Source of the DNA: a virus
Lineage: Duplodnaviria; Heunggongvirae; Uroviricota; Caudoviricetes
Length of the DNA: 12,549 nt
Direction: 5' to 3' (one strand)
Virus record (IMG/VR): IMGVR_UViG_2541047926_000005
Span: 1-12,549 of that record
The notes under the pieces were generated by a model, which worked only from the letters and a program-made list of their open reading frames with translations, was not told where the DNA came from and did not search any database. The translations under genes and the position numbers were made by a program. Below, piece after piece: positions 1 to 12,549 of the stretch. Within the stretch, counting starts at the first letter, position 1. Each line of letters begins with the position of its first letter.

Positions 1-1284
1 TTACTTCTTCGCCTCTGCAACCACTTTACTACCCACGCCGCGGTTATTGTATTCCCACATGCGGTTGTAGTTAGTGTCATTCAGATTGCGCTGTATTTCG
101 TCGTTATCATCTACGCTGCCGGTATTACCCGCAAACGGACGATTAGAGATCACCGCATCGGCCCACGGTTTAGCCGTGTTAAAACCTTCGTTGATGGCGC
201 TATCACGGATCACCACCTGACCGTTGGTATTGGCATCAACATCCAGCGAGCGGCCCAGTTGCGCCACACCATCACCGAAAGCATTGAAACGGCTGTTTAC
301 GGCGAGGAAACCGTAGTAAATGTTGGACAGCGTAGCCGGTGCAAACACATACGCTTCTTGCTGAGTACGTGAGTTCACCACGCGGAATTCGGTGTTATCG
401 AACACCACTGCGCCGCGACCAGAAACGATATCCACATCCCCTTCAATGTAGCTGTTGGTCACCAGCGTACGCGGCTGACGATTCGTTTCCAGACGGTTCT
501 GCACACCGCTGTTGGTGACAAAGAAGGTGTTCTGACGACCGAGAATGTTAACGTTGTTAATCTGTACCTGGTCACCATCAGTACGCAGTGCCACCGCCGG
601 ATGGTTACCTGCATCTACGCTATCGCCCAGCGTGTTTTCGATGGTCAGATTTTGCAGTTGCAGGCCATTGTTTTGTGACCAGAAGACCGCAGAGCAGAGA
701 ACACCGATACTGTCGCTGCGTTTGCTCTGGCAGCTATCGTACATATACCACGCTGGTTTACCTGGCATATATTTGCCGCGCGGGTTGACGTCGTGACGCC
801 AGTCGGCAGGGCTCATGCCACCATCAAGGGAAAGCCCAATCTTCACATCAATCGGTTTTTCACCTGTACCGTACAGAGTAATTCCACCCGGAGCGGCAGG
901 GACATATACCGTTCCCTGATACTCACCAGGCATCACGGCAATATACTGGCGCTTGTTGGTACGCTTGATAATTGCCGCATCTACCGCCGCCTGAATCGTG
1001 GTATGCGTTACACCTTGAGTGCCCGCCGGGCCGACAACAAAGTCAGGTTGCGCAGGCAGGGTAATCGGGGAAGGATTCCACGCTGCAGCACCTGGTGTCA
1101 GGGATGCAAAATAGTGTTGAGCATCGAAATTCTGCGCTTCTTTTGCCGACAGAATCGGGCGAGAAGAGGTACCAGGCGCGGTTTGATCAGAAGGACGTTG
1201 ATCGGGCGGGGTTGAGCTACAGGCGGTCAGCGTCACGCCAAAAGCCAATGCCAGCGCCAGACGGGAAACTGAAAATGTGTTCAC
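1..1284 (-). CDS. ybhC: YbhC-like outer-membrane lipoprotein (pectinesterase/CE8 beta-helix fold, putative acyl-CoA thioesterase)
   Basis: Complete 427-aa ORF; GTG start at 1284 with GGAG about 7 nt upstream; N-terminal signal peptide ending in lipobox LTAC; AVALRTDGD and DIVSG motifs typical of pectinesterase fold; lies directly outside the lambda att core, as ybhC does at attB(lambda) in E. coli. Confidence 0.8.
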   Translation of the reverse strand: MNTFSVSRLALALAFGVTLTACSSTPPDQRPSDQTAPGTSSRPILSAKEAQNFDAQHYFASLTPGAAAWNPSPITLPAQPDFVVGPAGTQGVTHTTIQAAVDAAIIKRTNKRQYIAVMPGEYQGTVYVPAAPGGITLYGTGEKPIDVKIGLSLDGGMSPADWRHDVNPRGKYMPGKPAWYMYDSCQSKRSDSIGVLCSAVFWSQNNGLQLQNLTIENTLGDSVDAGNHPAVALRTDGDQVQINNVNILGRQNTFFVTNSGVQNRLETNRQPRTLVTNSYIEGDVDIVSGRGAVVFDNTEFRVVNSRTQQEAYVFAPATLSNIYYGFLAVNSRFNAFGDGVAQLGRSLDVDANTNGQVVIRDSAINEGFNTAKPWADAVISNRPFAGNTGSVDDNDEIQRNLNDTNYNRMWEYNNRGVGSKVVAEAKK

Positions 1285-1321
1285 AGGTTGCTCCGGGCTA
1301 TGAAATAGAAAAATGAATCCG

Positions 1322-1421
1322 TTGAAGCCTGCTTTTTTATACTAAGTTGGCATTATAAAAAAGCATTGCTTATCAATTTGTTGCAACGAACAGGTCACTA
1401 TCAGTCAAAATAAAATCATTA
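1322..1421. other. attL (B-O-P') junction of a lambda-type integration: 15-bp core 1331-1345, IHF H'-like site 1371-1383, Int arm-type sites about 1392-1411
   Basis: Exact core GCTTTTTTATACTAA; left flank TGAAGCCT matches the bacterial B arm; right flank GTTGGCATTATAAAAAAGCATTGCTTATCAATTTGTTGCAACGAACAGGTCACTATCAGTCAAAAT matches the phage P' arm, with TATCAATTTGTTG (IHF consensus WATCAANNNNTTR) and tandem AGGTCACTAT / CAGTCAAAAT arm-type repeats. Confidence 0.85.
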
Positions 1422-2489
1422 TTTGATTTCAATTTTGTCCCACTCCCTGCCTCTGTCATCACGATACTGTGATGCCATGGTGTCCGACTTATGCCCGAGA
1501 AGATGTTGAGCAAACTTATCGCTTATCTGCTTCTCATAGAGTCTTGCAGACAAACTGCGCAACTCGTGAAAGGTAGGCGGATCCCCTTCGAAGGAAAGAC
1601 CTGATGCTTTTCGTGCGCGCATAAAATACCTTGATACTGTGCCGGATGAAAGCGGTTCGCGACGAGTAGATGCAATTATGGTTTCTCCGCCAAGAATCTC
1701 TTTGCATTTATCAAGTGTTTCCTTCATTGATATTCCGAGAGCATCAACATGCAATGCTGTTGGGATGGCAATTTTTACGCCTGTTTTGCTTTGCTCGACA
1801 TAAAGATATCCATCTACGATATCAGACCACTTCATTTCGCATAAATCACCAACTCGTTGCCCGGTAACAACAGCCAGTTCCATTGCAAGTCTGAGCCAAC
1901 ATGGTGATGATTCTGCTGCTTGATAAATTTTCAGGTATTCGTCAGCCGTAAGTCTTGATCTCCTTACCTCTGATTTTGCTGCGCGAGTGGCAGCGACAGG
2001 GTTTGTTGTTATATGGCCTTCAGCTATTGCCTCTCGGAATGCATCGCTCAGTGTTGATCTGATTAACTTGGCTGACGCCGCCTTGCCCTCGTCTATGTAT
2101 CCATTGAGCATTGCCGCAATTTCTTTTGTGGTGATGTCTTCAAGTGGAGCATCAGGCAGACCCCTCCTTATTGCTTTAATTTTGCTCATGTAATTTATGA
2201 GTGTCTTCTGCTTGATTCCTCTGCTGGCCAGGATTTTTTCGTAGCGATCAAGCCATGAATGTAACGTAACGGAATTATCACTGTTGATTCTCGCTGTCAG
2301 AGGCTTGTGTTTGTGTCCTGAAAATAACTCAATGTTGGCCTGTATAGCTTCAGTGATTGCGATTCGCCTGTCTCGGCCTAATCCAAACTCTTTACCCGTC
2401 CTTGGGTCCCTGTAGCAGTAATATCCATTGTTTCTTATATAAAGGTTAGGGGGTAAATCCCGGCGCTCATGACTTCGCCTTCTTCCCAT
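1419..2489 (-). CDS. int: Lambda-type integrase (tyrosine recombinase)
   Basis: 356-aa ORF beginning MGRRRSHERRDLPPNLYIRNNGYYCYRDPRTGKEF, recognised as lambda Int; catalytic region HELRSLSARLY ... HLLGHKSDTMASQYRDDRG present; 3' end abuts the P' arm; 23-nt overlap with xis as in lambda. Confidence 0.95.
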   Translation of the reverse strand: MGRRRSHERRDLPPNLYIRNNGYYCYRDPRTGKEFGLGRDRRIAITEAIQANIELFSGHKHKPLTARINSDNSVTLHSWLDRYEKILASRGIKQKTLINYMSKIKAIRRGLPDAPLEDITTKEIAAMLNGYIDEGKAASAKLIRSTLSDAFREAIAEGHITTNPVAATRAAKSEVRRSRLTADEYLKIYQAAESSPCWLRLAMELAVVTGQRVGDLCEMKWSDIVDGYLYVEQSKTGVKIAIPTALHVDALGISMKETLDKCKEILGGETIIASTRREPLSSGTVSRYFMRARKASGLSFEGDPPTFHELRSLSARLYEKQISDKFAQHLLGHKSDTMASQYRDDRGREWDKIEIK

Positions 2490-2685
2490 TTCTGATCCTC
2501 TTCAAAAGGCTACCTGTTACTGGTCGATTTAAGTCAACCTTTACCGCTGATTCGTGGAACAGATATTCTCTTCCATCCTTAACCGGAGGAGGGAATATCC
2601 TGCATTCGCGCACCCATCGACGAACTGTTTCAAGGCTTCTTGGGCGTCGCTGGCGAGCGTTCCACTCCTGAAGTGTCAAGTACAT
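2467..2685 (-). CDS. xis: Excisionase
   Basis: 72-aa ORF MYLTLQEWNARQRRPRSLETVRRWVRECRIFPPPVKDGREYLFHESAVKVDLNRPVTGSLLKRIRNGKKAKS, recognised as lambda Xis; overlaps the int start. Confidence 0.9.
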   Translation of the reverse strand: MYLTLQEWNARQRRPRSLETVRRWVRECRIFPPPVKDGREYLFHESAVKVDLNRPVTGSLLKRIRNGKKAKS

Positions 2686-2711
2686 CGCAAAGTCTCCGCA
2701 ATTACACGCAA
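2665..2711 (-). promoter_or_regulatory. pI-like CII-dependent promoter (TTGC-N6-TTGC at 2698-2711 on minus strand)
   Basis: Minus-strand TTGCGTGTAATTGC lies just upstream of the xis ATG, so the predicted transcript start falls inside xis; this matches lambda pI, which yields Int without Xis. No clear -10 hexamer, as expected for an activator-dependent promoter. Confidence 0.5.
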
Positions 2712-2712
2712 G

Positions 2713-2733
2713 AAAAAACCGCCATCAGGCGGC
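2713..2733 (-). terminator. Intrinsic terminator-like hairpin (stem CCGCC/GGCGG, loop 4 nt) followed by U6 on minus strand
   Basis: Plus strand AAAAAACCGCCATCAGGCGG; the minus-strand RNA would be GCCGCC-UGAU-GGCGG-UUUUUU. Confidence 0.4.
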
Positions 2734-2902
2734 TTGGTGTTCTTTCAGTTCTTCAATTCGAATATTGGTTACGTCTGCATGTGCTATCTGCGCCCACAGC
2801 ATCCAGTGGTTATAGCAGTCGCTGATGTTCTCGGCTTCGATAACTCTGTTGAATGGTTCTCCATTCCATTCACCTGTAACTCGGAAGTGCATTTATCATC
2901 GC

Positions 2903-2930
2903 CATAAAACAAAACTCGCCGTAGCGAGTT
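2903..2930 (-). terminator. Intrinsic terminator-like hairpin (7-bp stem AACTCGC/GCGAGTT, loop CGTA) with U-rich tail on minus strand
   Basis: Perfect 7-bp inverted repeat at 2913-2930; minus-strand downstream sequence is UUGUUUUAUGG. Confidence 0.45.
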
Positions 2931-2932
2931 CA

Positions 2933-2961
2933 GATAAAAGAAAACCCGCACTCGGCGGGTT
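2933..2961 (-). terminator. Intrinsic terminator-like hairpin (7-bp stem AACCCGC/GCGGGTT, loop 5 nt) with U-rich tail on minus strand
   Basis: Perfect 7-bp inverted repeat at 2943-2961; minus-strand downstream sequence is UUUUCUUUUAU; tandem with the preceding hairpin. Confidence 0.5.
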
Positions 2962-3240
2962 CGCATTCGTTCAAATTGCGTTTACTTCTTGGCGTTCTGT
3001 TCATCCATATCGATATACCATGGGTTGCTTCCCTTGGGCATGTTTAACGACTGCTCGCGATAGTATCTGATGCGCTCCATGAAATACTCGCGTGAGTGCT
3101 CAGGTTGCTCTCATGATACCTGCTCAGTGATAACAGGTATGTTAAGGCGCTCTCTGTACTCCATGCCTGATGCTGCAAGGTCAACGTTTACCTTGTTCTG
3201 TTTTTCTTTCGATTTCTCGGCGATGTTATGCCTGACATTG

Positions 3241-3525
3241 TCAACCCGCCTCCTTCTGAACATAACGGTTATAAATCAGTCCCTGAGGGCCATAAGGAAG
3301 CGGGATGTGCAACTCCTCTGGTTCAGAAACTATCCATTCCCCGGCCATCTCCGCTGGAGAGGTAATGATAAGTTGTTTGCTAATAAAAGGACCACTCCTC
3401 TCAACAACAAGCTTACCATCTTCATTAATAAAAGCTTGGATGTCAGGTGTGCTTCCACACTTGGTGATGCAGCGTTTGAACATTTTGTGTCCCCCCATTT
3501 TATGGACGGGGTAATTATAACACAT
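3241..3525 (-). CDS. Small hypothetical protein with N-terminal Cys/His cluster, in the ea8.5 position of lambda (Ea8.5-like, tentative)
   Basis: 94-aa ORF (lambda ea8.5 is 93 aa by recollection); N-terminus MCYNYPVHKMGGHKMFKRCITKCG has H-x4-H-x5-C-x3-C spacing; no SD at 3525. Alternative start at 3483 has a purine-rich GGGGGGA upstream. Follows an 84-bp AT-rich spacer. Confidence 0.5.
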   Translation of the reverse strand: MCYNYPVHKMGGHKMFKRCITKCGSTPDIQAFINEDGKLVVERSGPFISKQLIITSPAEMAGEWIVSEPEELHIPLPYGPQGLIYNRYVQKEAG

Positions 3526-3609
3526 TGAAATATAGTAATATTTGACGTAGATTTCTTTTGATCTATAAGCGATTTTTTAATGCTTTTAAGTTATAAATAC
3601 TTGTTTTCA

Positions 3610-4185
3610 TCACCCATCTTGCTGCGGTGCTACTATTGAAAAGTACTCACACCCTTTAGCCCAAATAGTTTTGATAGTTGTCCAACTGACTGGAACCTTG
3701 ATTTCGATTCTTCCGCTGCCGTCACAAGTTTCGCAATCATCATCACCAAAGCATTCCGGGCAGCTTATAAACGTAGTTTCTGAAAATTCACCGGATAGCA
3801 CACCCTTAGCGCCGTTCTCAGCGGTTAGTTTCTTCGGCACTATAACCCAACCATCCGGAGTTACCGGAGAATTGCCATTTATATCGAAGTTTGGCTCTGC
3901 GTCCTGAACCAGGAGGATGTAACCATTCTTGGCAGTATCAAGTTCTAACGCCTCGGTGACGGTACCGAAATAGCGATTACCTAAATCCGCATCACAAGTG
4001 CTTACATCAATGGAAACCTCCATGCCTTCGATTAATTCTGGCAAGTTGTAAGTTTGGCTTACAGGTTCTGCTCCCAGTGATGCCAGTGCAATTCGTGCCA
4101 GTTCCATTTGTTCGCCACGAGTAAGCCCGTTTTCAAGCGGATTTTTAATGAACAATTCAATACGTTCTTTGGTAATAGTGGTCAT
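3610..4185 (-). CDS. Hypothetical protein with C-terminal DnaJ-type zinc-finger motif (CxxCxG ... CxxCxGxG)
   Basis: 191-aa ORF; SD AAGGA 7 nt upstream of ATG 4185; only 10 nt downstream of the preceding gene's stop; C-terminal CPECFGDDDCETCDGSG. Confidence 0.7.
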   Translation of the reverse strand: MTTITKERIELFIKNPLENGLTRGEQMELARIALASLGAEPVSQTYNLPELIEGMEVSIDVSTCDADLGNRYFGTVTEALELDTAKNGYILLVQDAEPNFDINGNSPVTPDGWVIVPKKLTAENGAKGVLSGEFSETTFISCPECFGDDDCETCDGSGRIEIKVPVSWTTIKTIWAKGCEYFSIVAPQQDG

Positions 4186-4195
4186 TTGTTAGTCC

Positions 4196-5056
4196 TTAAA
4201 CTGCTAGTTGCAATTGCATTTCAAAGCGGTCGCGTTGTTCACAATACGCAAGAGAACCAGGGCTATTGTGTGCCTCAATCCGTTCTACCATTAATGCTGC
4301 GCGTGTCTCTTTACTTGCAGGTGCATAAGCCCCAGACCAGGCTTTATCAATACCGATGTTTCGAGCGACGTTCGTACTATCTGCGCTGGCTAAGGGTAAT
4401 TTTGTGAATATCAGCGGATTTAACATGCGCAATCCATGTAGTTTCGTAACCGGCTGACCATGCCCATCAACAATGTGACGAATCAGGTCTTTCATTCTGG
4501 CTACCGCAAGAGTTGGGCGCTTTACGTCATAGTCGCCACAACTACCGATAGCCACTCGCGGAAACTCATTGCACAAATGAATAAATCGCTCGTCACTTTC
4601 ATTCATGTGCCACACTGGAACGCCAGCTAGTTTTCCGTGAGCCCGGACTTCAGCCAGGAAAGCATCGGTGGCTGGGGTGTCAACACGGATGCTGTCGCGC
4701 AAGATGAAAAATGCATTGAGCATTCCAGTCTCTGGCACTTCATCCTGATGCTTCTCATACGCATCAAGAGCCTTCATCATCTCATGTCCGAATGGTTGAG
4801 GGTGCTCAGCCTTCAGCCCAGCATTCTCCGCCGCCAGCGCTGAAAACTTCTCGTGTGCCAACTTAACAGCCGAATCAGCCTGCTTAATTGACTCAATCGC
4901 TTTCTGGTGGTCTTCGTACAGAGCCGAAATCTTGGCCTCCGCTTCAGCAAATTTACGCACCAGATATTCAGCGTTTGTTTCGTTAACCTTTAAATCTCGT
5001 GGGAAGCATTTACCTTTCAGAAAACCATCCATCTCAATTAGTGACATTTGTTTCAT
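4196..5056 (-). CDS. Hypothetical protein: N-terminal coiled-coil-like region plus C-terminal globular domain
   Basis: 286-aa ORF; ATG 5056 overlaps the upstream stop (ATGA); GGAG upstream; helical heptad-like N-terminus ([30 protein letters not shown]); C-terminal motifs AIGSCGDYD and LHGLRMLNP, unrecognised. Confidence 0.7.
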
Positions 5057-5217
5057 TTCTTCCCACTCCGCAACATTGCATTCAGATATTTGTTGTCATT
5101 AACAGAACCGAAACTCTTTCTCTTAAGCAATTCCTCTCTCGATGGCATTGGCTTTACGCGTTGGCGAATAATCATTTCTGCCGGAAGAATGCTGGGATTG
5201 TATGCAAGTCCTCTCAT
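5053..5217 (-). CDS. Small hypothetical protein (about 54 aa), translationally coupled to both neighbours
   Basis: ATG at 5217 with SD GAGGAA 6 nt upstream (alternative ATG at 5235 overlaps the upstream TGA); its stop TGA overlaps the ATG of the 286-aa gene (ATGA). Confidence 0.4.
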
Positions 5218-5227
5218 GGTAAATTCC

Positions 5228-5524
5228 TCAGTCATTACTGATAGCGCCATAGCGTGAGCGGTAATTACGCAGGCGCGGGTCGATATATTCAGGGAAGTGG
5301 GTATATGTGGCTTTGCGGAATGGTCGGATTGATGTCTGGTAAATTCGCTCGCGTTCTTCTTTCTCTGCAAGCCATATACAGTGGCGAAATTCCTTTTCCT
5401 CTTTCGTTTCCTGCGGTAGCGACATTATCAGGTCGTAGTTTTTCCTGAATTTATCCAGCACCTCCGATACGGAATTGCCGGAACAGCGGCGCGCGTCATC
5501 CGCACCATACAGAGGCGCTGGCAT
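5228..5524 (-). CDS. Hypothetical 98-aa protein immediately downstream of the erf/ssb module
   Basis: SD AAGGA about 8 nt upstream of ATG 5524; begins 24 nt after the ssb stop. Confidence 0.65.
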
Positions 5525-5547
5525 AATGGAATCCTTATTTTGCTAAT

Positions 5548-5931
5548 TTAGAAGGGAATTGAATCGTCGTATTCAGGATGGTTTTGATGATTGCTACTTT
5601 GTTGCTGTTGGCTGTTTCCTGAAGTTGCAAATCCAATCTTTGCATTCAGTAATTCAAGAGTGATTGATTGACCATTTTGCCCCTGATAAACATCAACCCT
5701 GATGTTTTCTCCGGTAATTTCCACAATGCCACCTTCAACAAGAACACTACGGTAGTAATCCGCTTGCGCTCCCGGCTTGGCAAATACAACGGCGCTGTAG
5801 TTTGTCCATTCTTTCTTTTTTGTCTGGCGATCGTAATACTGAACGCCAGCACGGATGTTGAATCCGATATTTTCCCCGGCCTGAAACTCTCTTGCGGGCT
5901 TGTTTAGTCTTACAGTAATCGAATGTGCCAT
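5548..5931 (-). CDS. ssb: Phage single-stranded DNA-binding protein (SSB-like)
   Basis: 127-aa product from ATG 5931 (TAATG overlap with the erf stop); OB-fold-like core (SAVVFAKPGAQADYYRSVLVEGGIVEITG), Gln/Ser-rich linker, and acidic C-terminal tip DDSIPF matching the SSB tail consensus DDDIPF. The ORF-track N-terminal extension to 6021 overlaps erf and is rejected. Confidence 0.7.
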   Translation of the reverse strand: MAHSITVRLNKPAREFQAGENIGFNIRAGVQYYDRQTKKKEWTNYSAVVFAKPGAQADYYRSVLVEGGIVEITGENIRVDVYQGQNGQSITLELLNAKIGFATSGNSQQQQSSNHQNHPEYDDSIPF

Positions 5932-6536
5932 TAAGCAGCCGCTCCTTCTAATTCGTCTCGTCTGATGTTGTAAACGTCCTGCGCTTTGTGCTGCTCCGGT
6001 GTTCCTTCGAGCATCTTCCACGCTTTGGCGAACGCCTGTTTAAGCTCTTCCACGGTGTTTTTCTGCATTGCTGCGTCAGTGAATGCTTTTAGAACCTGTT
6101 CAGGTGTAGGTGATGGTTTTGATTGCTTTGCTACTGCGTTCTGCTGATGTTTATGCTCGTCTGTATCTGCATCTTTCGCATCATCAATGCCGAACAAACT
6201 ATTGAGGCAATACTTGCGTGCATAAGAGCTTGTAGCTCCCGTAACTTGTGCAGAATCCATTCCTTTCTTGCTTTCTTCCTCTCGTGCAAGAGCGGTTGCC
6301 GTATGACTGTTTTCGCCATCGGTAATAGTTGCCGTGGCTTTCACGTAATACCGATCACCAATCAACACAACTTCATCGCTGATTGATAAAAACAGGCCAT
6401 TCAGTAACGGCTTAACGCCTTCAAGAATATCTTCGCAGCTTCTGTATTTATATTTACCGAATGAGTTGTACTGATTTTTTGGCGCGTTCAGATTCTCCTG
6501 AATAGCTGCCAGTCTTGCGTAAAATTCTTTGCTCAT
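5931..6536 (-). CDS. erf: Erf-family single-strand annealing recombinase
   Basis: 201-aa product from ATG 6536 (MSKEFYARLAAIQENLNAPKNQYNSFGKYKYRSCEDILEG ... GATSSYARKYCLNSLFGIDD), recognised as close to P22 Erf; the start at 6536 leaves a 10-nt gap to the upstream small ORF, whereas the 6566 start would overlap it. Confidence 0.85.
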   Translation of the reverse strand: MSKEFYARLAAIQENLNAPKNQYNSFGKYKYRSCEDILEGVKPLLNGLFLSISDEVVLIGDRYYVKATATITDGENSHTATALAREEESKKGMDSAQVTGATSSYARKYCLNSLFGIDDAKDADTDEHKHQQNAVAKQSKPSPTPEQVLKAFTDAAMQKNTVEELKQAFAKAWKMLEGTPEQHKAQDVYNIRRDELEGAAA

Positions 6537-6546
6537 ATGTTTGTTC

Positions 6547-6716
6547 TCAGAATGGACATGGCCCAAGGAAATAACGCTGGTTTAATACTTCGACTCGGGA
6601 CAAATTAAGGCATACCCGCATTCCTTCGCGGTCACCATTATGGCGATACCAGAGAGCTTTCTGCGTGTACATGCGTCTCTGTAACTTGCTCTCCTTCACT
6701 GTGGTTGCAAGTGACA
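6547..6716 (-). CDS. Small hypothetical protein (56 aa) upstream of erf (arf-position ORF)
   Basis: Strong SD AAGGAG 6 nt upstream of ATG 6716; ends 10 nt before the erf start; overlaps an alternative 52-aa frame (6640-6796) that is ATGA-coupled to the kil stop. Confidence 0.4.
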
Positions 6717-6792
6717 TGAATATCTCCTTCGTTACCGATTAAATCTTTCATCTGACGAATGAATTCTTCGTCTGACCAGTTATCTGTAAAAC

Positions 6793-6945
6793 TCATTTCC
6801 TGCGATACCACGGAAGGTTGATAGCTGATTTCATCGCTTTATTTGCTTCAAGCCACATTTTGGAATCACCAATAAATCTGGCTATTACTGCTTTGTTTTG
6901 TGCTGCACGAAGCATCTGGTGATTGATGGTTATTTCATTGCGCAT
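6793..6945 (-). CDS. kil: Kil-like small protein (host-killing / cell-division inhibitor family, tentative)
   Basis: Unlisted 54-aa ORF MRNEITINHQMLRAAQNKAVIARFIGDSKMWLEANKAMKSAINLPWYRRK; SD GGAGG 5 nt upstream; start overlaps the 3' end of cIII as kil does in lambda; central FIGD-KM motif resembles lambda Kil as I recall it. Confidence 0.55.
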   Translation of the reverse strand: MRNEITINHQMLRAAQNKAVIARFIGDSKMWLEANKAMKSAINLPWYRRK

Positions 6946-7064
6946 AACGCCTCCAGTTGTTTCTTTGCTGCTCTGATTAATTGTTTAACTCGGCGTGATA
7001 ATTCAGATTCGAGCGGGTAGAAAGCGGACATGACGCCGCTACCCGCGAGCTGAAAGTGCATCAT
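6930..7064 (-). CDS. cIII: CIII-like protein (FtsH inhibitor that stabilises CII)
   Basis: 44-aa product MMHFQLAGSGVMSAFYPLESELSRRVKQLIRAAKKQLEALCAMK from ATG 7064 with SD AAGGAG 6 nt upstream; amphipathic core ESELSRRVKQLIRAAKKQLEAL parallels the lambda CIII core ESLLERITRKLRDGWKRLIDIL; the ORF-track 61-aa version has a spurious N-terminal extension. Confidence 0.75.
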   Translation of the reverse strand: MMHFQLAGSGVMSAFYPLESELSRRVKQLIRAAKKQLEALCAMK

Positions 7065-7139
7065 GGGTAACTCCTTATATTTGATTGCATAACGAAAATG
7101 CCTCTCGTGAAGCATTATTGGTATGCGGTAAAGCCGCGC

Positions 7140-7508
7140 TCAGGCGGCTTTGATAGTCATATCATCTGAATCAAATATTCCTGATGTGTCGATATCGGTA
7201 ATTCTTATTCCTTCGCTACCATCCATTGGAGGCCATCCTTCCTGACCATTTCCATCATCCCAGTCGAACTCACAAACAACACCATATGCATTTAAGTCTT
7301 TCGAAATTGCTATAAGCAGAGCATGTTGCGCCAGCATGATTAATACAGCATTTAATACAGCGCCGTGTTTATTGAGTCGGTATTTAGAGTCTGACCAGAA
7401 ATTATTAATCTGGTGAAGTTTTTCCTCTGTCATTACGTCATGGTCGATTTCAATTTCTATTGATGCTTTCCAGTCGTAATCAATGATGTATTTTTTGATG
7501 TTTGACAT
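7140..7508 (-). CDS. ea10: Ea10-like protein
   Basis: 122-aa ORF, same length as lambda Ea10; N-terminus MSNIKKYIIDYDWKASIEIEIDHDVMTEEKLHQINNFW recognised from lambda ea10; SD GAGGA upstream; sits upstream of cIII as in lambda. Confidence 0.7.
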   Translation of the reverse strand: MSNIKKYIIDYDWKASIEIEIDHDVMTEEKLHQINNFWSDSKYRLNKHGAVLNAVLIMLAQHALLIAISKDLNAYGVVCEFDWDDGNGQEGWPPMDGSEGIRITDIDTSGIFDSDDMTIKAA

Positions 7509-7526
7509 CTATTCATATCCTCATAG

Positions 7527-7554
7527 ATAAAAAATCGCCCTCACACTGGAGGGC
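7527..7554 (-). terminator. Intrinsic terminator (stem GCCCTC/GAGGGC, 6-nt loop) plus GAUUUUUU on minus strand, about 20 nt upstream of ea10
   Basis: Plus strand AAAAAATCGCCCTCACACTGGAGGGC; minus-strand RNA hairpin followed by U6. Confidence 0.55.
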
Positions 7555-7647
7555 AAAGAAGATTTCCAATAATCAGAACAAGTCGGCTCCTGTTTAGTTA
7601 CGAGCGACATTGCTCACATAGCAGACTCGTGAATCTGCTATAGGTGC

Positions 7648-7833
7648 TTATTCGCTTGGTGGTTCAGGTAATTTCACGTACTCAACACCCCACATATTTT
7701 CTACCCAGGAAAGCCACTCCCATGAATTCAGTCTTTGTGACCACATTCGCCATCTCCCATTCAATTGGGTAATCTCCGTCTCGTCTCCCGGCCTGACGAA
7801 TGTGCAATTAGACTTCGTTATTCTTACCTTCAT
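7648..7833 (-). CDS. Small hypothetical protein (61 aa, Trp-rich C-terminal half)
   Basis: ATG 7833 overlaps the upstream stop (TGATG); GGAGGAG upstream; product MKVRITKSNCTFVRPGDETEITQLNGRWRMWSQRLNSWEWLSWVENMWGVEYVKLPEPPSE. Confidence 0.5.
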   Translation of the reverse strand: MKVRITKSNCTFVRPGDETEITQLNGRWRMWSQRLNSWEWLSWVENMWGVEYVKLPEPPSE

Positions 7834-8129
7834 CACTCCTCCCCAAGAGCCTTGCTGATGGCTGCAAGACCTTTATTAACAGCTCCATACCATTCTGGAT
7901 ATGTTGTCGTTGTTCTATTTTTGGATTGCTTAAGTAATAACTGAAGTGCTTCGAGAAGGTCAGGTGCTGCCGCTATTAGATTGGCATCTTCAATACATTT
8001 AACTTCCTCACAGATTGCAATATACGAACGCCAGCCTGCGCCATTTTCAAGTGAGTCTGCCTGGATGATTTTAATCTCATCGCCATCCATCATTATTTCC
8101 CACTTACCTTCAGTACCTTTAAATTCCAT
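7833..8129 (-). CDS. Hypothetical 98-aa protein
   Basis: SD GAGG 6 nt upstream of ATG 8129; lies directly downstream of a terminator; contains IAAAPDLLEALQLL helix; family not recognised. Confidence 0.65.
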   Translation of the reverse strand: MEFKGTEGKWEIMMDGDEIKIIQADSLENGAGWRSYIAICEEVKCIEDANLIAAAPDLLEALQLLLKQSKNRTTTTYPEWYGAVNKGLAAISKALGEE

Positions 8130-8149
8130 GTTAGCCTCTGTTGTTTATG

Positions 8150-8177
8150 CCAAAAATAAAGGCCGACTATGCGGCCT
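8150..8177 (-). terminator. Intrinsic terminator (stem AGGCCG/CGGCCT, 6-nt loop) plus UUUAUUUUU on minus strand, overlapping the stop codon of the 207-aa gene
   Basis: Plus strand CAAAAATAAAGGCCGACTATGCGGCCT; hairpin and U-tract fall immediately 3' of the 8167-8790 gene. Confidence 0.55.
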
Positions 8178-8790
8178 CGGAAGGAAGTCCAATCATCTTA
8201 TTCAAATCTTCTACCCGTAAAGCAGGAAGTGCTGTACTTGCTTTATCTGCTTCTTTTGGTAGCAACTCTTTGCTTTCAGGCCAAACCTCAATAAGTCGCT
8301 TAACTGTTGTGACTGAGTTTAAAGCAGCCCATACATTTGATTCGATATCCTTTTTCTTGGCTTCAAGTTTTTGTTGTAATGAGCAGATTTCATCAAACCT
8401 TTTTGTTATTTCGTGCTCTGCGTCAAACATGCATTTATCTTTTATCGGAGTAGGGAGAAATATATCTTCGCCGTTGCCGTCTTTCCCATATGAATGCCAT
8501 CCAACCCTTCTGCCAGATACAGTCAGATAAATTGAAGTAGAACGAAAATCGTATGAGTAAAATGAACATCCCATCTTGCCAAGTTCTTCACTTATAGCTA
8601 CCAACTTGGATGATAACTGATCCACTTCCTCAGTTTTCTTTTTACCGCCAAACGCAATAACTCTGGCGTCAAGTGCAAGCTGGTTCTTTAACTTTGTTAC
8701 TTCTTCAAGCTCAGTGAAAACCCCAGACTTAATTAAAGCGTTACGAGCGATTTTCTCTTTCATTCTCGTAGTTAAGCGGATTGATGACAT
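8167..8790 (-). CDS. Hypothetical soluble 207-aa protein with its own terminator (accessory gene in the ral/sieB region)
   Basis: ATG at 8790 with SD GAGAGG 7 nt upstream (ORF-track start at 8805 is a TTG inside the SD); charged coiled-coil-like termini; no TM segments; family not recognised. Confidence 0.7.
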   Translation of the reverse strand: MSSIRLTTRMKEKIARNALIKSGVFTELEEVTKLKNQLALDARVIAFGGKKKTEEVDQLSSKLVAISEELGKMGCSFYSYDFRSTSIYLTVSGRRVGWHSYGKDGNGEDIFLPTPIKDKCMFDAEHEITKRFDEICSLQQKLEAKKKDIESNVWAALNSVTTVKRLIEVWPESKELLPKEADKASTALPALRVEDLNKMIGLPSEAA

Positions 8791-8847
8791 ATTAATTCCT
8801 CTCAAATAAGTGGTTTGCTGCGAAAGTAAATACGCTTAAGTTACCTG

Positions 8848-8985
8848 TTATTTATCCCACCAAGTTCCGTATCTATCTATCCAGTTACACCAATCGTCGA
8901 CACTCCATTTTGTTGTGTCGCATTTTGGCAATTGGCATGAATATCTACCTTCTTTGTAAAGTCGGCGTTTGACTTTCTTGGGCAT
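8848..8985 (-). CDS. Small Cys/Trp-rich protein (45 aa)
   Basis: Unlisted ORF MPKKVKRRLYKEGRYSCQLPKCDTTKWSVDDWCNWIDRYGTWWDK; strong SD GAGGTGA 6 nt upstream of ATG 8985. Confidence 0.45.
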   Translation of the reverse strand: MPKKVKRRLYKEGRYSCQLPKCDTTKWSVDDWCNWIDRYGTWWDK

Positions 8986-9171
8986 GGCTCACCTCAATCG
9001 TAATAAGCTGGAATTGATTTTCCGCGTTGCTTCTGGCGGCCTGAACAAGTCACACCCATTTCACTGCGTGGCTTGCGGTAGTAAAGATTGTGCCTGTCTT
9101 TTAACCACATCAGGCTCGGTGGTTCTCGTGTACCCCTACAGCGAGAAAAATAGTAAAATCCTCTCACCCCC

Positions 9172-9534
9172 TTATTTTGTCAGGGGGATATCTCCTTCAG
9201 TTCTGACCATTCGCCTTAATACTTTCCTTAAGTCGATGTAAAGTTGAAGGTCTCCATTTGCTGCGGCATCAGCCATTTTTTGCCTGACAAGCAGTAATGT
9301 TTCATACGGCTCAATAAGAATATCGTCATGAGTAATTAGGTGAAGCGTTGCCGCATCAACTATTCCTAGAGCTGCGCCAAGTATCAAAAATTCCCTGCTA
9401 TTTTTGTCGCATGAGGAGATAAGCGTATTTAGCGCATACCTAATATTCTTTATAGCTGTTGTTAATGCTGCAATTTCTTCTATGGCGTCTTCTTCAATGA
9501 GATTTTTAAGCTCATATTTTTCTTCCTGACCCAT
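9172..9534 (-). CDS. Hypothetical 120-aa protein, first leftward gene after the organisational break
   Basis: ATG 9534 with SD GAGGT about 5 nt upstream; the ORF-track extension to 9618 lacks an SD and has a different composition; no Arg-rich motif, so not an N-like antiterminator. Confidence 0.6.
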   Translation of the reverse strand: MGQEEKYELKNLIEEDAIEEIAALTTAIKNIRYALNTLISSCDKNSREFLILGAALGIVDAATLHLITHDDILIEPYETLLLVRQKMADAAANGDLQLYIDLRKVLRRMVRTEGDIPLTK

Positions 9535-9569
9535 AATTACCTCGCCGTCAGTTGTTTTGATTTCCGGTA

Positions 9570-9601
9570 GCCTGCCGCGTAAATGGCTACATTTGGCAGG
9601 C
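9570..9601. promoter_or_regulatory. Nested inverted repeat GCCTGCC-n18-GGCAGGC (inner AAATG/CATTT) in the divergent intergenic region; candidate operator or RNA structure
   Basis: Perfect 7-bp arms at 9570-9576 and 9595-9601; overlaps a weak sigma70-like promoter for the plus-strand gene (TTGATT 9557-9562, 17-nt spacer, TAAATG 9580-9585). Confidence 0.3.
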
Positions 9602-9647
9602 AAACACTTCCACTGCATTCATCAACTTTCTTGCAGCGAAGGCTAAT

Positions 9648-11123
9648 GTGCTGAAGTATGACCCTGATCAGTTACGACAGGATTTGTCTTCACAGGGCGG
9701 CGTAAACTTAGTTAATGGTGCCGTTAGTTATGATAATCTGGGTAGTGAATACGGGCTGAATCTCATAGGTGAATATGCCGAAATATCAAATTTACGGGAT
9801 GTAGCACCATCTGTAGGTGATAAGGTCATGGTGAAGGAGCACACCACAGGACGTGGTTTGTTAGGTGGTGGTGTTTTCGTAGCTGTATCAGGGAATTACA
9901 CAGATGATGATGGAGTATTTATTTCGTCTGCTTCCCCATCTGTATATTGGGTACGAAGTGGCGCAGGTAGTCATGTTATAATTGAATGGTTCGGTGGCAA
10001 ATCTGAAGATCAGAGTTTAGATCATTCTCCTATCCTGGCTAACGCACAGTTATATGAAGGTCGATCGATAGAGTTTCAGTACGGAAGCTACTACTTTACA
10101 CCTCCATGCGTCATCAAGCCGTCTATGCATTTCATCGGCAGCGGTGGCGCTAAAACATTCTGGCGAAACAAAAATATAAATGCGGACGCCACGGTGTTCT
10201 TCGCCAACACCGGGAGTGCATCTTCTTGGGCTGAAAATACAGTGTTCGAGCGCATTCATTTTAGTAATGACTCCAGCTCTACCCCCAGCAATGCGGCTAT
10301 ATCACTGCAACATGCGAGTCTATTTAAATTTGATAAGTGCGGTTTTTACAAGGCACCGATTTACGCATCAGATTTACACTGGGTTACTTGGAATGGCTGC
10401 GTATTAATCGACAGTATGACCACAATTAACGAGGCCAGTGTATCACCAGCATTTCCTATTAACGAGGGTCCAGCATTTATCGACTGCTATATGGTCAGAT
10501 CCCCTATAGATATAACTGATGTTGCCGATTTGAGACTAGTAGGCACTTCGATGTTTTACGGACCTTACGGCATAAAGTCAACGACACACCGACCTTTAGA
10601 TTCAGGGGCGGATTCTCGGGGATTACCGGTATTTATAACTAATAGCGTAATTGACAATATTGACGGTTATTGCTTGGACCTTAACAGAGTGGCGGTAGGA
10701 ACTATCACAAACAGCCTGTTCTCTGGAGGAAGAGTGTCAGGGACTCCAGCAATACGTGCAACAGAGGTTTTGGGACTTAGCTTTAACGCCAATGTTATCC
10801 ATTTCGCCGGTCAGGAATGCATGTACCTCTATGACGTGCAGAATATATTAATGGGTAATAACCAATTCAGTAGTTGCAACGGTTATGCAATAAAAGCAGA
10901 ATATTGTCGTAATGTTACTGTGAATGGTAATTTCTTCGGTAACCAGAAAGTCACTGGCGGATGGAATACATGCACTGGAGGGATAAACTTTAACACCAAC
11001 GATAACCTTGCATGGATAATAACTGGCAACACTTTCGTAAGTGTACCCGGAGTTGTAGGGCAGACAGGGTCTGGAAGAACAGTTTATACTGCCACAGGTA
11101 ATTCAGGTTTGTCAGATAATTAA
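9648..11123 (+). CDS. Tailspike-like right-handed beta-helix protein lacking a head-binding domain (putative polysaccharide-degrading or -binding)
   Basis: 491-aa ORF with GTG start at 9648 (SD GAAGG 5 nt upstream); N-terminus LKYDPDQ matches the conserved junction motif of P22-family tailspikes as I recall it, and the upstream in-frame codons read A-N-V; body has beta-helix-like repeats (NVTVNGNFF, NILMGNNQF, LSFNANVIH, ITNSLFSGG); no signal peptide. Confidence 0.75.
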   Translation: MLKYDPDQLRQDLSSQGGVNLVNGAVSYDNLGSEYGLNLIGEYAEISNLRDVAPSVGDKVMVKEHTTGRGLLGGGVFVAVSGNYTDDDGVFISSASPSVYWVRSGAGSHVIIEWFGGKSEDQSLDHSPILANAQLYEGRSIEFQYGSYYFTPPCVIKPSMHFIGSGGAKTFWRNKNINADATVFFANTGSASSWAENTVFERIHFSNDSSSTPSNAAISLQHASLFKFDKCGFYKAPIYASDLHWVTWNGCVLIDSMTTINEASVSPAFPINEGPAFIDCYMVRSPIDITDVADLRLVGTSMFYGPYGIKSTTHRPLDSGADSRGLPVFITNSVIDNIDGYCLDLNRVAVGTITNSLFSGGRVSGTPAIRATEVLGLSFNANVIHFAGQECMYLYDVQNILMGNNQFSSCNGYAIKAEYCRNVTVNGNFFGNQKVTGGWNTCTGGINFNTNDNLAWIITGNTFVSVPGVVGQTGSGRTVYTATGNSGLSDN

Positions 11124-11133
11124 CAATATATGC

Positions 11134-11190
11134 ACTCACATGACAATATATGTATAACAGTTGCCGTATATTTGTCATGTGAGTTGTTTT
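11134..11190. terminator. Bidirectional terminator-like hairpin between convergent genes (13-bp perfect stem 11134-11146 / 11172-11184, 25-nt loop)
   Basis: ACTCACATGACAA and its reverse complement TTGTCATGTGAGT; followed by TGTTTT on the plus strand and an AT-rich tail on the minus strand; flanked by 10-bp direct repeat ACAATATATG (11123-11132 and 11143-11152). Confidence 0.5.
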
Positions 11191-11196
11191 AATATA

Positions 11197-12549
11197 TTAA
11201 GCTCTCTTTATTAGAACTGGAGATATAATGATGATTGGTAGTGCTTTTACCAGATAAACCAGCGGGAGAACTAACTCAGCTCTACATGAAAAAATGAATC
11301 CTGGTAAAATGGCCATTGCAGATACAATAAGCATCTTATTTCCTGATGACAGCAACTTATTTATCAATAGAATAATTGACAATGAATACGCTATCATTAC
11401 CATTGGCCCAAATGCACCGCCAAGAATCATGGATTCAAGCGGAAGTGATGATGATAAAGCTATTCCAGATGAATGACTGCCAAGGGCAATATCCGTATAT
11501 ACTTGCGATATCGGCGTGACACCGTTTATATTAAATCCAAGCAGGTTAAAGAATTGTAATATAATATCTTCCTGATTAAAATTGTGGGAATACCAAAAGT
11601 CAGATATATTGAAAGTACTTTGCAACCCAGATATTATTGATGCTATAGAATCAAGAACAATTAGTAAATAGCTAAAGAAATACATGTTGTATCCTTCTCT
11701 ATAATATGAAACCAAAGAAAGTACAACAAATAGAGATGATATTACTACAGGGCTTGTTATTTTTCTGAAGTATTTCTTTGCATTATTTATATCAACAAAC
11801 ATCATTATTATAAAAATTGAAATCAAGGAAGAAAAAGCCTTCCCTCTAATGCCTATAATTATGTCTGAGAACAATATGAATATTGCAATTGCTGTAATTA
11901 TCTTACTCCTTGAAAAGGCTATAGCCATGAGCGATAAAATTACTGAAAACCCACTTAAGAACCTTATTGCGAAAGGCACTGACGACACAAGATCGTCGTT
12001 TGATAGATATATTGCAAGATGCCCAAGACCTGAATTTGATATGAATGAGTAATATGTGTATATTTTATATAGTTGAGCTATCGCTACAAACAAAAATATA
12101 AATACAAAAAAATTACTTAGCCTTAGATTAATTAAAGGATTTGTTTTTGTTTGTCTGAATGACTTTCCAAGAAAGTAAATAACCATAGATGAAAGAACGA
12201 TGCATAGCATCATTCCTTTAAATGCAGGAGTGGAGTCGTTTACCATAAACAAATAACAGGCAGGTATTCCAAGAAGTAATGAATAACAAAAGAAATATAT
12301 AGTTCCAATAGATAATTCATTCATTCTTTTTATATACGATAACACCAAGCATGAAGTATACAGTGGAGCGATAAAACAAAACAATATATCATATACACCT
12401 GATTGAACCCCAGATATCATTAGCAATGATATAAATACGATTATAGACAGTAGAGCAAACATAAGAAATATATACGGCAATGTATTAACTATCTGGTTTG
12501 GAGTCCATATATAACCAGTGTTACTGCCTGAAATGTATTTTCTAATCAT
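11197..12549 (-). CDS. Polytopic inner-membrane protein, GtrC/Wzy-like (candidate O-antigen modifying enzyme: serotype-specific glycosyltransferase or O-antigen polymerase)
   Basis: 450-aa ORF with many hydrophobic helices; markedly AT-rich codon usage unlike the rest of the window; starts at the last base of the window (ATG 12549-12547), so the true start may lie beyond; convergent with the tailspike-like gene. Confidence 0.75.
   Translation of the reverse strand: MIRKYISGSNTGYIWTPNQIVNTLPYIFLMFALLSIIVFISLLMISGVQSGVYDILFCFIAPLYTSCLVLSYIKRMNELSIGTIYFFCYSLLLGIPACYLFMVNDSTPAFKGMMLCIVLSSMVIYFLGKSFRQTKTNPLINLRLSNFFVFIFLFVAIAQLYKIYTYYSFISNSGLGHLAIYLSNDDLVSSVPFAIRFLSGFSVILSLMAIAFSRSKIITAIAIFILFSDIIIGIRGKAFSSLISIFIIMMFVDINNAKKYFRKITSPVVISSLFVVLSLVSYYREGYNMYFFSYLLIVLDSIASIISGLQSTFNISDFWYSHNFNQEDIILQFFNLLGFNINGVTPISQVYTDIALGSHSSGIALSSSLPLESMILGGAFGPMVMIAYSLSIILLINKLLSSGNKMLIVSAMAILPGFIFSCRAELVLPLVYLVKALPIIIISPVLIKRA

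Follow-up and report, generated by a model that had tools for sequence, protein, structure and literature searches.

The analyzed stretch of DNA, here referred to as the window, comprises positions 1 to 12,549 of the IMG/VR virus record IMGVR_UViG_2541047926_000005, which is assigned to the Caudoviricetes. At its end the window carries an open reading frame (ORF) of 450 amino acids (aa) which, judging by homology, very probably encodes a prophage-borne O-antigen polymerase (Wzy). Our reading, to which we assign a probability of roughly 70%, is that this wzy gene constitutes a single-gene conversion cassette that provides a second polymerase for O-antigen units of the Escherichia coli O176 type and may have replaced the native enzyme. 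The name itself was already available, since the NCBI Prokaryotic Genome Annotation Pipeline (PGAP) labels proteins with 99% identity as 'O-antigen polymerase'. Added here are the link to O176 and the frameshift of the native wzy.

The wzy-like gene is located on the minus strand (11197–12549), with its stop codon at 11197–11199 and its ATG at 12547–12549, at the very end of the window. A preliminary description of this DNA had left open whether the ORF is complete. Contigs of the same arrangement which run past the window end (L006 with 0 and L003 with 6 mismatches to the window) show a TAA in frame immediately before the ATG, and RefSeq gives a 99%-identical gene the same 450-aa limits. The ORF is therefore complete. 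As described before, it is AT-rich compared with its neighbours: the GC content of the coding sequence is 31.9% (27.9% at third codon positions) vs 43.7% for the convergent tailspike ORF and 45.3% for window positions 1–9600.

The product also appears to be the polytopic membrane protein it had been taken for. Hydrophobic stretches in a 19-residue Kyte-Doolittle scan merge into approximately 12–13 segments, and the AlphaFold2 model (17 homologues; pLDDT 86, pTM 0.85) consists almost wholly of long helices. Residues 310–373 contain neither lysine nor arginine. In the family alignment H177, G233, R235, R284, E285, S301, S366–368, E372, L400, R423, E425 and K435 were invariant. The positive-inside rule would suggest a topology of 12 transmembrane helices with both termini in the cytoplasm and all invariant residues in the periplasm, provided that the helix 291–315 is counted in the large periplasmic loop. 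A Foldseek search of the model against the PDB gave no meaningful match, and a profile search of PDB sequences returned a single spurious one (E 1.6).

The assignment as Wzy is based on homology. An end-to-end Pfam match to PF14296 (O-ag_pol_Wzy) was found below the gathering threshold (17.3 bits vs a cut-off of 26.6, E 0.0021), and the same family was matched by 7 of the 17 aligned family members with a best E of 8.7e-8. No NCBIfam model and no PHROGs family matched the protein, and tblastn against 50,697 phage records gave no match to it. Among 5.8 billion proteins a word-indexed search retrieved six relatives, and searching 1.84 billion representatives exhaustively with HMMER gave just 20 at E<1e-3; the family is very small.

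The closest relatives were a Salmonella protein (93% identity), P0002 (64%) and P0003 (52%). In a neighbour-joining tree these three and the window protein formed one clade apart from the chromosomal sequences. For three of the four, the window protein, P0002 and P0003, a location in a prophage was confirmed. The alignment of these four sequences found no relatives among the GTDB species representatives or in IMG/VR.

Outside this clade, P0005 (40% identity, E 2.7e-64) represents the cluster which holds the chromosomal Wzy of E. coli O176, and identity to the latter amounts to approximately 36–40% over nearly the full length. This enzyme (WP_046644955.1, named 'O176 family O-antigen polymerase' by PGAP) belongs to the same family, is of similar size (443 vs 450 aa) and shares the invariant histidine, arginine, glutamate and serine residues. 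In contrast to the prophage-borne protein of the window, which falls into a distinct clade and may form a different linkage, it is encoded between galF and gnd. Two further relatives, P0004 and P0006, come from related mannose-type clusters, which also contain manC, manB, two transferases of the GT1 type, a gene of the size of wzx, and wzz.

The 90%-identity cluster of the window protein holds Salmonella enterica sequences, namely P0048 (93%, full length) and a fragment, of subsp. houtenae serovar 18:z36,z38:-. The nearest relatives of the native O176 Wzy outside E. coli were found in S. Cerro and Citrobacter (67–69%). The same pairing of phage and host may thus exist in Salmonella O18; a literature search on the relatedness of Salmonella O18 and E. 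coli O176 yielded nothing usable. Fragments of the prophage Wzy, comprising the N-terminal 161 aa or the C-terminal 162 aa from M289, are recorded in several genomes (P0007, P0051, P0055, P0057), one of them labelled E. coli O106. The prophage wzy is accordingly disrupted in some lineages.

The distribution of the gene connects it with O176. Among 5426 complete E. coli genomes the prophage wzy was present in three, GF66.2, PSS-11 and MB53, and the O176 wzy-wzx pair in eight, all three carriers included. The hypergeometric probability of this overlap is ~2e-9, or ~2e-6 if GF66.2 and PSS-11, which are identical at both loci, are counted once. Apart from the complete genomes, carriers were detected in GCA_004767235.1, SRR786272, SRR6784596, SRR14993948, SRR32236011, ERR11861305 and SRR30025527. 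Since the prophage wzy and the O176 cluster co-occur, the O-unit used as substrate is presumably common to both polymerases.

In all three carriers the native wzy was flagged as frameshifted by PGAP, whereas it was intact in all five O176 strains lacking the prophage gene. The native genes are located outside the window (GF66.2, L013 8955–10285; PSS-11, L016 501–1831; MB53, L014 6501–7832). In each of the three a tract of eight adenines at nucleotides 731–738 is shortened to seven; MB53 additionally carries an inserted T. The frameshift in MB53 has to be read with some caution, as several other homopolymer indels are present in this genome.

Over 15.5 kb GF66.2 differs from strain MIN9 (O176:H45) by 5 single-nucleotide polymorphisms and a single indel, the one in the A tract, although the region holds five further homopolymer runs of at least 8 bases. 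Moreover, the exact 250-aa truncated product of the native gene is recorded from 13 contigs (NCBI, Logan, ENA). Both observations argue against an assembly artefact. The A8 tract may be a phase-variable or a selected off-switch of the native wzy.

The arrangement around the prophage gene was compared in five contexts. Upstream of wzy the contigs of the window type carry an att site followed by ybhB. The prophages of GF66.2 and MB53 begin with argW and intS, after which come wzy and the convergent tailspike gene. The P0002 and P0003 loci belong to P22-like prophages with the order integrase, wzy, convergent tailspike gene, gp16, gp20 and gp7. The paired tailspike receptor domains of these two versions share 74% and 73% identity with that of the window, and the Wzy proteins 64% and 52%, respectively. 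According to these alignments the conserved unit consists of the tailspike receptor domain and Wzy, which co-vary.

Serotype-converting phage polymerases are known from Pseudomonas phage D3 (Wzy-beta, together with Iap) and from Salmonella phage epsilon15 (beta-polymerase, together with an inhibitor). In the module described here an Iap-like ORF, small and hydrophobic, was not found: the 298-bp leader of wzy contains just short hydrophilic ORFs, and the neighbouring genes differ between the versions. A phage inhibitor of the native polymerase is thus not conserved within the module, though an intact phage might encode one elsewhere. The leader itself shows no conservation between the three versions of the module either.

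One of the hydrophilic ORFs (MTMKKEFQMITELASKNKVPIYSTHTLHM) is located at L003 9850–9939, approximately 60–150 bp past the window end, and overlaps the only promoter-like site of the leader (TTGACA-17-AATGAT, L003 9850–9878). It is not Iap-like and not conserved in the leaders of P0002 and P0003. In the version with 64% identity a 129-aa Peptidase_S24 (UmuD/LexA-like) gene (L021 7275–7664, minus strand) and a small HNH/AP2-like ORF lie between integrase and wzy; both are absent in the other versions.

Based on these data we propose that the gene is a cassette occupying the slot between integrase and tailspike of P22-like temperate phages. In other P22-like phages the same slot holds gtrABC or oac. 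The prophage Wzy would act in the periplasm on O176-type tetrasaccharides (three mannose residues, Man, and one N-acetylgalactosamine, GalNAc; Man-Man-Man-GalNAc) which are linked to undecaprenyl pyrophosphate and flipped by the Wzx of the host. As a distant copy of the O176 strains' own polymerase, it therefore probably re-links sugar units rather than adding glucose.

The O176 unit has the structure ->4)-a-Man-(1->2)-a-Man-(1->2)-b-Man-(1->3)-a-GalNAc-(1-> (PMC8244359), and hence the native Wzy forms the alpha-GalNAc-(1->4)-Man bond. The prophage enzyme would most likely polymerise the units via a different position. Such a linkage would change the serotype and turn the O-antigen of the lysogen into a poor substrate and receptor for the phage's own tailspike; conversion would thereby protect lysogens from phages with a matching tailspike. 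With the native wzy of the carriers examined switched off by a 1-bp slip in the A8 tract, some lineages at least may depend on the prophage enzyme as their sole working polymerase.

A broader version of this proposal is held more tentatively, at somewhat less than even odds. It assumes a family of P22-like phages with a matched pair of tailspike receptor domain and Wzy paralogue, whose enzyme took over in O176 lineages, the native wzy being switched off at A8. The result would be an unrecognised O176 variant antigen and a snapshot of how a serogroup originates by polymerase replacement.

The alternative that survives best is a back-up function with unchanged linkage. Here the prophage Wzy would make the ordinary O176 polymer and restore smooth lipopolysaccharide (LPS) where a phase-variable native wzy is off at its A8 tract, and the serotype would stay the same. 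Membership of both enzymes in one family, the inactive native wzy in 3 of 3 carriers with complete genomes and the lack of a conserved inhibitor of the native enzyme in the module are all in line with it. However, the prophage enzyme is just 36–40% identical to the native one and belongs to a separate prophage clade, and restoring the phage's own receptor on the lysogen would bring no obvious gain to the phage. The Wzy enzymes of phages D3 and epsilon15, moreover, alter the linkage. The same has been described for the Acinetobacter prophage enzyme WzyPh1 (PMC9241936). We therefore regard a mere back-up as a real but unlikely possibility.

A polymerase or ligase for another glycan, such as capsule, enterobacterial common antigen or colanic acid, appears improbable. 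Wherever the surroundings of the nearest chromosomal relatives could be recovered, they formed a cluster of the O-antigen type with wzx and/or wzz, and among the complete genomes the gene occurs solely alongside the O176 cluster.

Still less probable, in our view, is that the gene represents inert cargo decaying in a defective prophage. Such an explanation would fit a deletion remnant with a truncated tailspike gene next to wzy and the disrupted copies of the gene elsewhere; the short-range ratio of nonsynonymous to synonymous substitution (dN/dS) is uninformative, with 8–10 differences in total. Against it, the full 450-aa frame and the 298-bp leader survive in three independently and differently decayed prophages. 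In the window type the decay consists of a deletion from pL to the tailspike gene. GF66.2/PSS-11 have lost the early region and those for lysis and terminase, in association with the insertion sequence IS3. In MB53 just intS, wzy and a 3' piece of ~290 bp of the tailspike gene are left beside IS1. Over long range dN was 0.26–0.40 with saturated dS, which indicates strong purifying selection on the prophage Wzy. We propose that wzy was kept intact amid the decay because it is perhaps the sole working polymerase.

The GF66.2 prophage at argW, which is P22-like and carries a full-length tailspike gene (product WP_338389178.1) and wzy, is itself defective (L001 6732–9336). The portal gene, which IS3 abuts, lacks the N-terminal part, and the annotation shows no genes for immunity, replication, lysis or terminase.

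A GtrC-type serotype-specific glucosyltransferase encoded last in a gtrABC operon, as favoured by the preliminary description, is hardly credible any more: the polytopic protein and its AT-rich gene would suit the slot in which P22-like phages and K-12 CPS-53 have gtr genes, but neither gtrA nor gtrB was present upstream of wzy in any of the five contexts (window type, GF66.2, MB53, P0002, P0003), and the homologues of the protein are Wzy enzymes encoded in O-antigen clusters. Instead of the gtrA and gtrB expected just past the window end, the att site and ybhB follow in the window type, and intS or another integrase elsewhere. The search suggested for GtrC/GT-C or acyltransferase-3 families gave no Pfam match at E<=1 and no NCBIfam match. 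The gtrABC model was rejected on the grounds of this context and the Wzy homology, and an Oac-like O-acetylase of the acyltransferase-3 type as no Acyl_transf_3 match was obtained in the Pfam scan at E<=1. The findings do support the wider idea, an O-antigen conversion gene next to the tailspike gene of a P22-like phage; Wzy had been among the options named for it.

The window covers most of a prophage remnant of approximately 11.8 kb at att-lambda, P22-like and decayed, as the att cores and the gene order found inside and beyond the window demonstrate. The chromosomal gene ybhC (1–1284, minus strand) is followed by attL, a lambda-type att core (1331–1345, plus strand; exact sequence GCTTTTTTATACTAA). 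The matching attR core lies approximately 592–606 bp past the window end, where a second copy (L003 9395–9409) adjoins ybhB. A lambda-type integrase gene (1419–2489) and xis follow attL, and then a lambdoid early-left operon with ERF, Abc2-like, Kil, CIII and Nmad5 genes and an N-like gene at 9172–9534.

Two small genes within this part were noted. One lies between xis and the recombination genes (3111–3263, minus strand); its 50-aa product has a domain of the DNA polymerase III theta (HOT-like) type. The other encodes the Nmad5-family protein of 207 aa (8167–8790, minus strand), putatively involved in nucleotide modification, just downstream of the N-like gene; it is an unusual cargo at that position of an early-left operon.

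A deletion or recombination junction at 9619–9647 (~9643), delimited by homology, fuses the N/pL region with codon ~106 of the tailspike gene. The window resembles lambdoid N regions as far as ~9644, and the tailspike-wzy module of GF66.2 from 9643 onwards. By this comparison everything from pL through tailspike codon ~105 has been deleted from the remnant. No genes for immunity, replication, lysis or morphogenesis are left in it. The junction falls exactly at the boundary between the head-binding and the receptor-binding domain of the tailspike, a known exchange point in P22-like tailspikes.

Past the window end contig L003 continues from the wzy start into the 298-bp leader, the last ~85 nucleotides of an intS-type integrase gene, the P-arm and core of a lambda att site, ybhB and bioA. 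The intS 3' relic (L003 9620–9702, approximately 300–380 bp past the window end) thus lies upstream of wzy in a prophage flanked on both sides by lambda att sites, which implies that the wzy cassette came from a phage integrating at argW. Leader and intS relic are identical in the att-lambda and the argW versions, and therefore the cassette moved between phages with different integration modules. K-12 CPS-53 carries yfdGHI at the same argW/intS slot.

The ORF convergent to wzy (9648–11123, plus strand) had been described as tailspike-like. Homology to tailspikes was confirmed, yet the ORF is a 5'-truncated remnant which contains the receptor-binding beta-helix domain only. It aligns to residues 106–596/597 of the full-length tailspikes beside P0002 and P0003 (74% and 73% identity) and to positions 106–626 of 626 of phrog_7173 (E 1.5e-185). 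Beta_helix was its sole Pfam domain, whereas the full-length relatives also have PF09008 (Head_binding). As the alignments start at residue 106, the head-binding domain is lacking, and the ORF is to be regarded, on these alignments, as a pseudogene remnant and not as a working tailspike gene.

The stop codons of the tailspike ORF (11123) and the wzy ORF (11197) face each other at a distance of 73 bp. The hairpin proposed to be shared by both genes corresponds to an inverted repeat at 11134–11184, a candidate bidirectional terminator, with perfect arms of 13 nucleotides (11134–11146 and 11172–11184). A fold of –25.9 kcal/mol was calculated over 101 nucleotides (z = –3.7; 0 of 200 shuffled sequences were as stable). 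A shared terminator in the spacer is plausible. It is not canonical, since a generic terminator scan passed over it: the perfect arms enclose too long a loop, and the run of T residues is too short. The inverted repeat is identical in GF66.2, and the P0002 and P0003 modules carry an inverted repeat in the same spacer with a sequence unrelated to that of the window.

The proposed conversion by a second polymerase resembles that of phages D3 and epsilon15, in which a temperate phage likewise brings an enzyme that re-links the O units of the host. In contrast to these, no similarity to their polymerases was detectable, no small inhibitor gene is conserved alongside, and the native wzy is switched off by mutation in the carriers examined. 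The gtrABC and oac cassettes (P22, Sf6, yfdGHI of K-12 CPS-53) agree with the gene in occupying the same slot as an AT-rich moron convergent on the tailspike gene. A gtrABC cassette differs from it in having three genes instead of one, including gtrA and gtrB, in protein family and in decorating side chains, whereas Wzy polymerises.

Another related case is WzyPh1 of an Acinetobacter baumannii prophage (K127 capsule), which overrides the Wzy of the locus and alters the linkage between the units (PMC9241936). Both prophage enzymes are related to the Wzy of chromosomal polysaccharide loci. Unlike the polymerase of the window, WzyPh1 acts on a capsule and belongs to another genus and another type of phage; the native wzy is still intact in that case.

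The closest evolutionary parallel concerns Salmonella group B1, which arose from B2 when a wzy gene (rfc) was gained outside the rfb cluster and the original wzy was then lost (PMC3715488). In the O176 carriers a new wzy is likewise located outside the cluster and the original one is inactivated. The Salmonella event is ancient and fixed, with no recognisable phage module; here the module, the att sites and the 1-bp inactivation are still visible. A review of E. coli O-antigens from 2019, which cites the D3 polymerase, merely hypothesised a second wzy outside the cluster (PMC7685785).

Genome-based O-antigen typing reads the galF-gnd cluster only. If the proposal is true, carriers with an O176 genotype would show another antigen and another receptor for phages and their tailspikes than predicted. 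The locus offers a concrete and testable case, with GF66.2, PSS-11 and MB53 as carriers, MIN9 as control, an O unit of known structure and a matching tailspike. A prophage wzy which has been kept next to a native wzy with a 1-bp lesion makes the evolution of serogroups through replacement of the polymerase directly testable, and it would give a present-day view of an origin of serogroups that has so far been inferred retrospectively for Salmonella group B1.
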